A stretch of DNA of 31,647 nucleotides, taken from positions 1 through 31,647 of the IMG/VR virus record IMGVR_UViG_2681813201_000018. One strand, written 5' to 3'. Positions 21,001-24,000 of the stretch are shown here, one piece after another. This stretch comes from a virus. Its lineage: Duplodnaviria > Heunggongvirae > Uroviricota > Caudoviricetes. The position numbers are program-made. Each line of letters begins with the position of its first letter. The stretch's first letter is position 1.

Positions 21001-24000
21001 GGGGTATGAACCAGATGGAAAAAATCACAACAGGTGTGTCATACACCACGTCAGCGGTGGGAACGGGCTACTGGTTCCTGCAGTTGCTGGACAGGGTTTC
21101 CCCGTCTCAGTGGGCGGCAATAGGCGTGCTGGGGAGTCTGCTGTTTGGTCTGCTGACGTACCTGACGAACCTGTATTTCAAAATCAGAGAGGACAGGCGT
21201 AAGGCGGCACGGGGAGAGTAGGTGATGAACCATGAAGAAATGAATCAGCGCTTCAGTCGTCTGGAAAATGAAATTGCTGAACTGAATAAAAAACTGTCGG
21301 CGCTGATGCCTTCTGAAGATGAAAAAAAACGCCGCGATGAGCAGTTTGCTGCGTTTGACGATTATTGTCGGAAAGTGATGAGCAGAAATCTCGCAGAGTG
21401 TTTCAGTATTCATAATGATAATTGCAGTGAGCTGGAATGGGAGTGTAACCGGCCATCCTTTGTTGTATCCGGTGATGACGGGAAAATCACCATATCAGAA
21501 AATGGAAAAGTAACACTGCCATCGCACCAGCACAGTGAGACGCTCATTGAATTTGCCATTGATTACCTGAAGAACAATAAAAAACAGGGGCTGATGCAGC
21601 GCATTGGTCGTTGCATGGGGTATCTGCAGGTAGCCGCTGAGATTGAAGCGCTGGCCAGTGGTGCTGATAAGGATGCAATTGTGCGGGAGGCTCTTCTTCG
21701 TAATTTTAATACTCCACCCTTTAAAAAAGTGCCGGCTTACTGGCTTCATCCCGGACTGACTTATCTGAAAGTGCGTATTTAGTGGGCCTGGGACAGCGGC
21801 TGAATATTTAATATATCCATGAACACAAAAATCAAATACGGCCTGTCGGCTGCCGTTCTGGCGCTGATTGCCGCAGGTGCTTCTGCGCCTGAAATTCTCG
21901 ACCAGTTTCTTGACGAAAAAGAAGGTAACCACACCACGGCATACCGTGATGGTGCGGGTATCTGGACCATCTGCCGTGGAGCCACCCGGGTGGATGGTAA
22001 GCCTGTTATTCCTGGCATGAAGCTGTCGAAGGGGAAATGCGACCGGGTTAACGCCATTGAGCGTGATAAGGCGCTGGCATGGGTGGAGAAAAACATCAAA
22101 GTGCCACTGACTGAACCCCAGAAAGCGGGGATCGCGTCATTCTGCCCGTATAACATTGGCCCCGGTAAGTGTTTCCCGTCGACGTTTTATAAACGAATTA
22201 ATGCAGGCGATCGCAGGGGAGCGTGTGAAGCGATTCGCTGGTGGATTAAGGACGGAGGCAGAGACTGCCGTATCCGCTCAAATAATTGCTATGGTCAGGT
22301 ATCCCGTCGTGACCAGGAGAGCGCGCTGGCGTGCTGGGGTATCGACAGATAAGCAGAATATTTTGCTGAAAAATGACGTTGGCCAACGCGGACGGATAAC
22401 ACGAAATCCTGCGAACTGGCAAAACCTGAGTGAATAAAAGTAAAAACCCCGTTTGTTAGCAGCAGGTGGGGTTTTGTGTTTCCTGACTCCGGAAAAGTCA
22501 AAGGAGAAAGTGTGTTTGATTTTAGCAAACTGATTCGGGAGATTTGAGTGATGGCTGAAAAATTATCTACCTGGAAGTTCATTCTTATCTGGCTGGTGTT
22601 TGTGATTATGGTCTCCGGTTATTTCATCGGTCAGATACGCTGGTGGTGAAATGAACCGCGTACTGTGTGTGGTCATCATTGCCCTGCTGGTGGCCTGTGG
22701 TGCGCTTAGTCTGGGGCTGAATCATTACCGTGATAACGCCATCACCTACAAAGCGCAGCGCGATAAAAAAGCCAGAGAGCTGGAGCTGGCAAACGCAACC
22801 ATTACTGATATGCAGGTGCGCCAGCGCGATGTTGCTGCGCTCGATGCAAAATACTCAAGGGAATTAGCTGATGCGAGAGCTGAAAATGAAACTCTGCGTG
22901 CTGATGTTGCCGCTGGTCGTAAGCGCCTGCGGATCAACGCCACCTGCTCCGGTACCGTGCGTGAAGCCACCGGCACCTCCGGCGTGGATAATGCAACCGG
23001 CCCCCGACTGGCAGACACCGCTGAACGGGATTATTTCATCCTCAGAGAACGGTTGATGACAATGCAGAAGCAGCTGGAAGGGGCACAGGACTATATCCGC
23101 ACTCAGTGCCTGAACTAAGTTTTGCGGATGCGCCGTATCGTCGCTGTATTCCCTCATTAACAGAGACCGCAGCCCGACAGGGAGACTCCTCTGCGCGAGT
23201 GTGCGGGGATAATCAAAAACGATACACACCGGGGTTTACCGCGTTAACGGAGCGCGGCGTTGTCCCCTCATAGTCGCTGGTCCGGTGCGATGGTGGAAGA
23301 AACCGGACTACATTACAAATGATAACCATTATCATTTTGCGGGTCCTCCTGGTGGGGTGGGCCTGAACACGGGGCGGGCGGCGCGGAAAAAGGCGCATTT
23401 TTTGATTTTTATGGCACCATCACCACCAGTGTAAGTTGTTGATATATAGAAAAATAAAAATTTTTAGTGTCGAATCTGGTTGTTTTTTGTTCATCACTGG
23501 TGTGTGTTTACATAATTTTCAGGGGGAGTTATGGATCGTGAATTAAAAAATCTGCATCTGAATATTTCCCAACTGGCCGCATTATCCGGTGCTCATCGAC
23601 AGACTGTTGCGGCTCGGGTAAAAAACATAAGCCCAGCCGGTGGTCATGAGAGCAATCTCAAACTGTACCGACTGACAGATATCCTTGCCGAGCTGATGAA
23701 AGCTCCTCTGCCTGTAGATAACGAGGAAATGGATCCTCATGCGCGTAAAGCATGGTACCAGTCAGAACGTGACCGACTGAAATTTGAGCAGGAAACTGGT
23801 CAGCTTGTGCCAGTCAGTGATGTCAGGCGGTCCTTTTCTGTCGTGGTGAAAGCGATAGTTCAGGTACTGGAAACCTGGCCTGACCGGCTGGAGAGGGACA
23901 GGGGGTGGACCGCATCACAACTGAATGAAGTACAGATTGTGGTTGATGAGATCCGCGACACACTGGAAAAGGCAGTCATTGACTGTTGTGATGAGGCCGA

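Follow-up and report, generated by a model that had tools for sequence, protein, structure and literature searches.

A DUF1327-less YdfR-family gene between the holin and endolysin genes of an stx-less relative of Stx prophages

A 185-aa open reading frame between S and R

The window analysed here, the whole 31,647-nt stretch of IMG/VR virus record IMGVR_UViG_2681813201_000018 (coordinates count from its first letter), carries a 185-aa open reading frame (ORF) inserted between the holin gene (S) and the endolysin gene (R) of a lysis cassette (Table 1). An earlier examination of the DNA without database searches, referred to below as the sequence-only reading, had placed this ORF between a pinholin and a signal-anchor-release (SAR) endolysin, with a start 4 nt after the holin stop, and both points hold. 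The upstream product belongs to the S21-type class II holins; the downstream product is a phage lysozyme and, as read from its sequence, begins with a Gly/Ala-rich hydrophobic segment of the SAR type. The holin stop codon TAG occupies positions 21219-21221 and the ATG of the ORF begins 4 nt later; an alternative in-frame GTG at 21222, which abuts the holin stop, would give a protein of 186 aa. The motif GGGGAGAG at the end of S is a good ribosome-binding site, serving the 185-aa ORF in the window.

Pairwise ratios of non-synonymous to synonymous substitution rates (dN/dS) ranged from 0.09 to 0.46 in comparisons with three Escherichia coli orthologues and with the C-terminal domains of two longer homologues. 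Homologues with 30-40% identity are present in Salmonella, and the protein has a RefSeq entry (WP_001015158.1, hypothetical protein). The ORF is therefore a true coding gene and not a chance ORF, and it is under purifying selection. It is compositionally foreign to its flanks, with a GC content of 45%, and of 44% at third codon positions, compared with 54-56% and 57-71%, respectively, in the neighbouring genes. No promoter-like or terminator-like site was found between S, the ORF and R in a scan of positions 21000-21820.

The AlphaFold model of the full-length protein (mean pLDDT 80) predicts two helices (residues 3-27 and 31-60), a disordered linker and a compact C-terminal domain (CTD). In the first helix, F10, L13, I17, L20, L24 and L27 follow a 3-4 hydrophobic spacing, in agreement with the coiled-coil-like N-terminus recognised by the sequence-only reading. 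This hairpin module (aa 1-60) is also present in DUF1327-containing proteins and in a protein of phage Stx2_499 that has another C-terminus, and some tblastn matches were confined to aa 1-65. The linker is the place of the 28-aa length difference between the 185-aa protein and the 213-aa forms described below. Modelled alone, the CTD (107 aa) reached a pLDDT of 91.4 and a pTM of 0.84; residues H103, G128, R129, Q135, K167, W173, P176, G177 and Y180 are invariant or nearly so. Neither a membrane segment nor a signal peptide-like segment was found in the protein (maximum 19-residue Kyte-Doolittle mean 0.76), which is predicted to be soluble and cytoplasmic. A PDB sequence-profile search with the CTD alignment gave nothing significant (best E 0.011, a PhoU helix), and Foldseek of the structure model against BFVD gave no match below E 0.1; as modelled, the CTD is an orphan fold, without relative in PDB or BFVD.

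A polymorphic slot filled by a three-module mosaic gene set

Pfam, NCBIfam and PADLOC scans of the 185-aa protein recognised no family, enzymatic or other, as expected from the earlier remark that it has no recognisable enzymatic motif; with the PADLOC defence-protein models, no family was matched at E ≤ 1. A borderline match to a helical hairpin of Relaxase_C (E 0.051) was rejected, as it reflects coiled-coil composition only. The sequence-only reading had not recognised the family and saw in the gene the strongest candidate in the window for undescribed function; the family is catalogued, both as phrog_1085 (unknown function) and as the C-terminal part of proteins called "YdfR family protein" or "DUF1327 domain-containing protein" by PGAP. 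Residues 1-185 match positions 117-296 of the 296 positions of the phrog_1085 profile (E 2.9e-111); on this alignment, the protein is a partial-length member that lacks the N-terminal 116 profile positions.

E. coli proteins of 287-296 aa that carry DUF1327 (PF07041) and the above PGAP names are the nearest relatives that are not identical; their C-terminal ~180 aa align with 98% of the 185-aa protein at 83-91% identity. Relatives named "YdfR family protein" span 268-385 aa, and the 185-aa protein corresponds to their C-terminal two-thirds. The 268-aa gp05 of Stx2 phage 86 (YP_794052.1) aligns with the CTD (62% of the 185-aa protein) at 81% identity. These long proteins (gp05, clusters P0006 and P0034) are encoded in the same slot after an S21-type holin gene and, like the 185-aa protein, match phrog_1085. 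The ORF of the window likewise has the location of the YdfR/DUF1327 family, directly after a class II holin gene and before a lysozyme gene. The 185-aa protein differs from the long forms by the absence of DUF1327 (no match even at E ≤ 1, compared with 9e-41 for P0034) and by having a separate start, at the coiled coil; identity to the equivalent segment is only ~50% over the first ~25 residues.

Alignment resolved three modules: DUF1327 (the YdfR domain), the coiled-coil hairpin with its variable acidic linker, and the 107-aa CTD. DUF1327 stands alone in YdfR of the E. coli K-12 Qin prophage (b1555, 103 aa) and in an unannotated ORF of phage H-19B. Combinations of DUF1327 with the coiled coil, and of all three modules, both occur. 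The coiled coil is joined to the CTD in the window protein and in the 213-aa forms, and short forms of this kind, devoid of DUF1327, are also found in Salmonella; in Stx2_499 the coiled coil is joined to an unrelated C-terminus. The N-terminal domain of the long Salmonella form was aligned with E. coli DUF1327 by hhalign with 80% probability (E 1.4e-5), and the three-module fusion is therefore old and conserved. K-12 YdfR comes from the same slot and the same mosaic gene set as the window protein, and alignment found no region common to the two. By sequence, then, the 185-aa gene is a DUF1327-less variant of known, catalogued YdfR-family slot genes, functionally uncharacterised.

The sequence-only reading held that holin and endolysin genes are normally adjacent, which does not apply to this type of cassette. 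When 60 of the 365 phage records were taken as a spread sample, the S-to-R span was 754 bp (adjacent genes) in most Stx (Shiga toxin) phages, and ~1145 bp or 1750-2050 bp in the others, which have inserts of ~390 bp (DUF1327 only) or 1-1.3 kb. E. coli chromosomes, also taken as a spread sample, had 29 places where S and R are joined; a "YdfR family protein" was annotated between "class II holin" and "lysozyme" in 18 of them, and the two genes were adjacent in the other 11. In the K-12 Qin prophage the gene order is essQ-ydfR-rrrQ-rzpQ and the inserted gene follows the holin stop with the 4-nt spacing seen in the window; the Stx1 phage H-19B carries its 114-aa DUF1327-type ORF (locus L017, 515-859; AF034975.3) between the annotated S and R genes. 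According to the DNA alignment, the cassettes compared have the insert junctions in common: one where S ends, the other at "ATATCCATG", 5' of R. The slot is thus polymorphic and filled by a three-module mosaic gene set. Among related cassettes the 185-aa gene is not always present, and the slot itself is commonly filled by YdfR-family genes.

A gene encoding the CTD was found between holin and lysozyme genes in all 80 IMG/VR loci that carry it, and the intact ORFs begin 4-5 nt after the holin stop. Among these loci, 23 have the 185-aa form, ~17 a 213-222-aa coiled coil plus CTD form, ~28 a form with DUF1327 and ~12 a truncated form. Among 5426 complete E. coli genomes, 233 contain at least 80% of the 185-aa gene. 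The CTD family is very small: when 1.84 billion protein representatives were searched exhaustively, 36 clusters at 50% identity were obtained, the named members were all from Escherichia, Shigella or Salmonella, and only E. coli and S. flexneri were matched among species-representative genomes. Two long proteins from this search (P0139 and P0153), which resembled repeated versions of the CTD beta-hairpin, were rejected as homologues: both are adhesins of Gram-positive bacteria, with DUF5978, Big_9 and cadherin repeats, and repetition inflates their scores. In Salmonella prophages the coiled coil plus CTD gene lies upstream of the holin gene, between a Q/ParE-HTH (helix-turn-helix) region and an HP1-type or S21-type holin gene.

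Several features of other slot alleles were also observed. The larger alleles add a small convergent gene and a hairpin. In many E. coli loci and in Salmonella, a convergent gene of 104-105 aa (phrog_1853, unknown function; 47% identity across genera) lies directly 3' of the CTD gene; the 213-aa and 268-aa alleles have this companion, which the 185-aa allele almost always lacks and which does not occur in the window. A toxin-immunity pair formed with this 104-aa gene was rejected for that reason. In further alleles the convergent gene is an unrelated one, namely a DUF1883 gene in locus L008 and a 90-aa ORF in locus L019. In the allele of the Stx2a phage Stx2_499 (locus L001, 3326-3811), the coiled-coil N-terminus is 95% identical over aa 1-62 and the C-terminal half (~100 aa) is entirely different and annotated by neither Pfam nor PHROG; the ~500 bp behind the allele carry no annotation. 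The long YdfR-family slot gene is frameshifted in many clinical E. coli chromosomes, where it is annotated as a partial pseudogene or has its 3' part unannotated (e.g. strain 222; locus L016, 2053-2943).

Possible roles of the 185-aa protein

Phage P13374, in which S and R are adjacent and the slot is empty, encodes a holin with 100% identity to the one in the window. The holin therefore does not need the inserted gene, and the 185-aa gene is, as judged from this identity, dispensable for it. We lean towards the view that the gene is dispensable, late-transcribed accessory cargo, one allele of the YdfR mosaic, with a likely role in RNA turnover and not in lysis. The sequence-only reading had proposed, among other roles, cargo expressed at the highest late-gene levels: late-gene cargo fits best, and late co-expression itself is predicted from the sequence.

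According to this proposal, the slot between the S21-type holin and R21-type endolysin genes of E. coli lambdoid prophages would be a recombination-prone hotspot, and the 185-aa allele, with coiled coil and CTD only, would behave like a moron. The lambdoid late-operon morons (lambda bor, stx, nanS-p, DUF826 and DUF1378 genes) are likewise present or absent between near-identical phages, have an atypical base composition and lie in the Q-to-terminase region; the Salmonella homologues lie, as they do, between Q and S. The 185-aa gene shows the same presence/absence variation and atypical composition, but classic morons have their own promoter and terminator, whereas it has neither, is embedded in the lysis cassette and is probably translationally coupled. 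As no promoter or terminator of its own is predicted, it would be read in the Q-dependent late transcript, and its translation would probably be coupled to that of the holin. The hairpin may mediate self-association or pairing with other coiled-coil-bearing YdfR-family proteins, and the basic CTD may bind a cytoplasmic host target; late co-expression, oligomerisation and the class of target are what we infer here.

The suggested pathway comes from K-12 YdfR, residues 1-72 of which bind the N-terminal (catalytic) half of RNase E in two-hybrid and co-purification experiments, and with which RNA co-purifies (PMC13232886). Since Escherichia and Salmonella both have fusions of the CTD with DUF1327, and YdfR binds RNase E and co-purifies with RNA, the most likely pathway would be the turnover of host RNA at a late stage of infection; the 185-aa protein itself has no DUF1327 and may take part by pairing, through its coiled coil, with paralogues that bear this domain. 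The region of YdfR mapped for RNase E binding (PMC13232886) is absent from the 185-aa protein, and a direct transfer of the YdfR-RNase E interaction to it was rejected because the two have no sequence in common. In the literature on ydfR, DUF1327 and the genes intervening between holin and endolysin in Stx phages, no functional study of the 185-aa protein was found.

Several points weigh against accessory cargo acting in RNA turnover. First, because the 185-aa protein lacks DUF1327 and has no segment in common with K-12 YdfR, the link to RNase E is one of guilt by fusion only. Second, Pfam/PHROG, PDB profile and BFVD searches gave no fold or sequence relative that would indicate a biochemical activity. 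Third, about 15% of the IMG/VR copies of the CTD gene (~12 of 80) are truncated or frameshifted and some chromosomal copies are pseudogenes, so that selection is not strong everywhere. Finally, the constant tight coupling to the holin gene in E. coli could stem from a functional tie with lysis and not just from a convenient recombination junction.

Such a tie is the basis of an alternative we consider unlikely, that the protein is a lysis-timing regulator, i.e. a cytoplasmic antiholin or holin-binding factor kept at a fixed ratio to the pinholin by translational coupling, which delays or sharpens triggering. In E. coli the start of the gene is invariably 4-5 nt downstream of the holin stop, and the Salmonella gene still adjoins the lysis cassette, but in Salmonella it is upstream of the holin, including holins of the HP1 type. 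Binding of the holin tail, which is basic (charge ~+2.8), by the acidic coiled coil (pI 5.35) is conceivable, and the built-in antiholin may, by analogy with phage 21 S, be weak, as the MNQ extension of the holin lacks the lysine found in K-12 EssQ (MKS). The holin identical to that of the window nevertheless functions with S and R adjacent in P13374, and the slot is empty in most related Stx phages; other slot alleles consist of DUF1327 only or have an unrelated C-terminus, and position therefore does not imply one function. Precedents for a soluble lysis-timing factor encoded next to or with the holin are P1 LydB, the antagonist of the LydA holin, and the cytoplasmic antiholin T4 RIII. P1 lydB directly follows lydA, the stop of which it overlaps by 4 nt. 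Phage P1 also uses a SAR endolysin. LydB shows no sequence or profile similarity to the 185-aa family (hhalign probability against the family profile, 0.09%), T4 RIII was likened by description only, and, unlike these factors, the accessory gene is absent from many cassettes with an identical holin. The protein has no membrane segment and thus not the membrane or periplasmic topology of the S107, S21-71 and RI types. No PHROG of the lysis category was matched, all PHROG matches being of "unknown function". Homology to a known lysis accessory protein was looked for in Pfam, NCBIfam and PHROG and by hhalign with LydB, and none was found. The lysis regulator or antiholin-like factor that the sequence-only reading had also proposed has no positive support. 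If the protein did tune pinholin timing, it would represent a new class of soluble antiholin, with a bearing on the release of toxin and phage from Shiga toxin-producing E. coli.

A role in prophage conflict (superinfection exclusion, defence or anti-defence) also appears improbable. The N-terminal part would be an adaptor and the C-terminal part an exchangeable "effector" engaged in an arms race. The patchy presence of the gene, the shuffling of modules including an alternative C-terminal domain, the very narrow host range (36 clusters; Escherichia, Shigella and Salmonella), the atypical GC content and the small convergent genes without known function that often accompany the gene are all consistent with such a role, but there was no PADLOC match, and with no promoter of its own and a late-operon orientation the gene would not be expressed in the lysogen, at the time when defence matters, and would be expressed too late for classic anti-defence.

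We give rather little credence to a stronger version of the RNA turnover proposal, in which a modular phage system acts on RNase E or the RNA degradosome, with the coiled coil plus CTD protein as its effector half, made in step with the pinholin and reprogramming host and phage mRNA decay just before lysis. The CTD would then be a new RNA-binding or degradosome-acting domain, brought to RNase E in cis by fusion to DUF1327, or in trans by coiled-coil pairing with the DUF1327-coiled-coil proteins of co-resident prophages. If the CTD does act with DUF1327 on RNase E, it would be a temperate-phage addition to the short list of phage RNase E modulators.

Last, the ORF is very unlikely to be a decaying and functionless remnant of a long YdfR-family gene that lost DUF1327 and was kept open by chance: truncated or frameshifted copies are common (~12 of 80 IMG/VR loci, and a pseudogene in strain 222) and the protein lacks the only domain with an experimental interaction, but its dN/dS values are low (0.09-0.46), its conserved start (MNHEEMNQR...) recurs in the 213-aa forms and in the Stx2_499 variant, its N-terminus has diverged from the equivalent segment of the long forms and so does not result from a recent deletion, the 185-aa form recurs in 23 of 80 viral contigs and at least 80% of the gene in the 233 E. 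coli genomes mentioned above, and DUF1327-less forms occur independently in Salmonella.

For now, the 185-aa gene is a hypothetical gene of an ordinary kind, listed in databases already, and it bears no mark of the lysis machinery. The interest of the slot is that it is part of the Q-dependent late transcription unit, which carries stx in Stx phages, and that a large proportion of E. coli prophages have it occupied, as does the K-12 reference, with no occupant having an assigned role. The analysis shows that the slot occupants form a three-module mosaic, and that the CTD, compact, confidently folded and without structural relative, is a concrete experimental target.

The lysis cassette and the surrounding prophage

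Table 1. Features of the window and, in the last four rows, of related loci (coordinates within those loci)
Feature	Coordinates	Strand	Basis or remark
S21-type class II (pin)holin, 71 aa	21006..21221	+	PF04971, E 9e-33
Shine-Dalgarno-like GGGGAGAG	21211..21218	+	Inside 3' end of holin gene; sequence and alignment with P13374
Accessory ORF (coiled coil + orphan C-terminal domain)	21225..21782	+	185 aa from ATG
aa 1-60, antiparallel coiled-coil hairpin, acidic (pI 5.35)	21225..21404	+	AlphaFold helices; partial matches to phrog_2091 and phrog_15975; alignments
aa 61-78, variable acidic linker, low confidence	21405..21458	+	pLDDT <50 at residues 58-69; alignment gaps; charge
aa 79-185, conserved CTD, basic (pI 9.1)	21459..21779	+	Three-strand meander + four helices
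R21-type SAR endolysin, phage lysozyme	21819..22352	+	PF00959, E 3e-24
Rz i-spanin	22651..23118	+	PF03245, E 3.4e-50
Rz1-like lipoprotein ORF	22871-23056		ORF list; embedded in +1 frame, LVVSAC lipobox
DUF1133-type Q	15955-16629		Late accessory region (15955-20928)
ORF6N-domain gene	17109-17666		Where Stx phages carry stx
NanS-p-like SASA/DUF6645 esterase	18379-20325
DUF1378 gene	20463-20642
DUF826 gene	20683-20928
Convergent phrog_1853 gene, locus L015	3070-3384	-
Convergent phrog_1853 gene, locus L002	4085-4399	-
Convergent phrog_1853 gene, locus L003	3979-4293	-
Convergent phrog_1853 gene, Salmonella locus L005	4521-4838	-

The holin gene has a dual-start motif (21006-21017) that reads M-N-Q-M in the window, M-Y-Q-M in relatives and M-K-S-M in K-12 EssQ. 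In phage 21 S, an extra lysine makes the longer form an antiholin. Because the dual start of the window holin is M-N-Q-M and not M-K-S-M, its longer product has no extra lysine.

Compared with R of six related cassettes, the endolysin shows 90-94% identity; one of the six is the H-19B protein, whose annotation notes a similarity to phage 21 R. No obvious Shine-Dalgarno sequence for R was seen in the preceding 36 nt (21783-21818, …AATATTTAATATATCC-ATG), and the R start "ATATCCATG" is common to all insert-bearing cassettes. In slot-empty phages, the Shine-Dalgarno-like motif (GGAG) at the end of S sits just 5' of the R start, whereas in the window it serves the inserted ORF. As the R start is shared and the Shine-Dalgarno sequence at the end of S is taken by the ORF, the insert may lower or change endolysin translation.

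A 33-codon ORF at 22548-22649, which encodes one hydrophobic helix, stops 1 nt before the Rz start; at the same position, related cassettes encode hydrophobic "hypothetical proteins" of 43-49 aa (26-28% identity), and the ORF may specify a small membrane protein of the lysis cassette. Strong terminator-like hairpins are present at 20938-20967, directly 5' of the holin start region, and at 22443-22475, just 3' of R; both are presumably read through by the Q-modified polymerase.

Upstream of the lysis cassette, the late accessory region holds no tRNA gene, and the window is an stx-less relative of Stx prophages. The DNA of the 185-aa ORF is 100% identical to that of an ORF in E. coli O157:H7 PV15-279; the upstream gene order differs there, so that the window is probably a different prophage.

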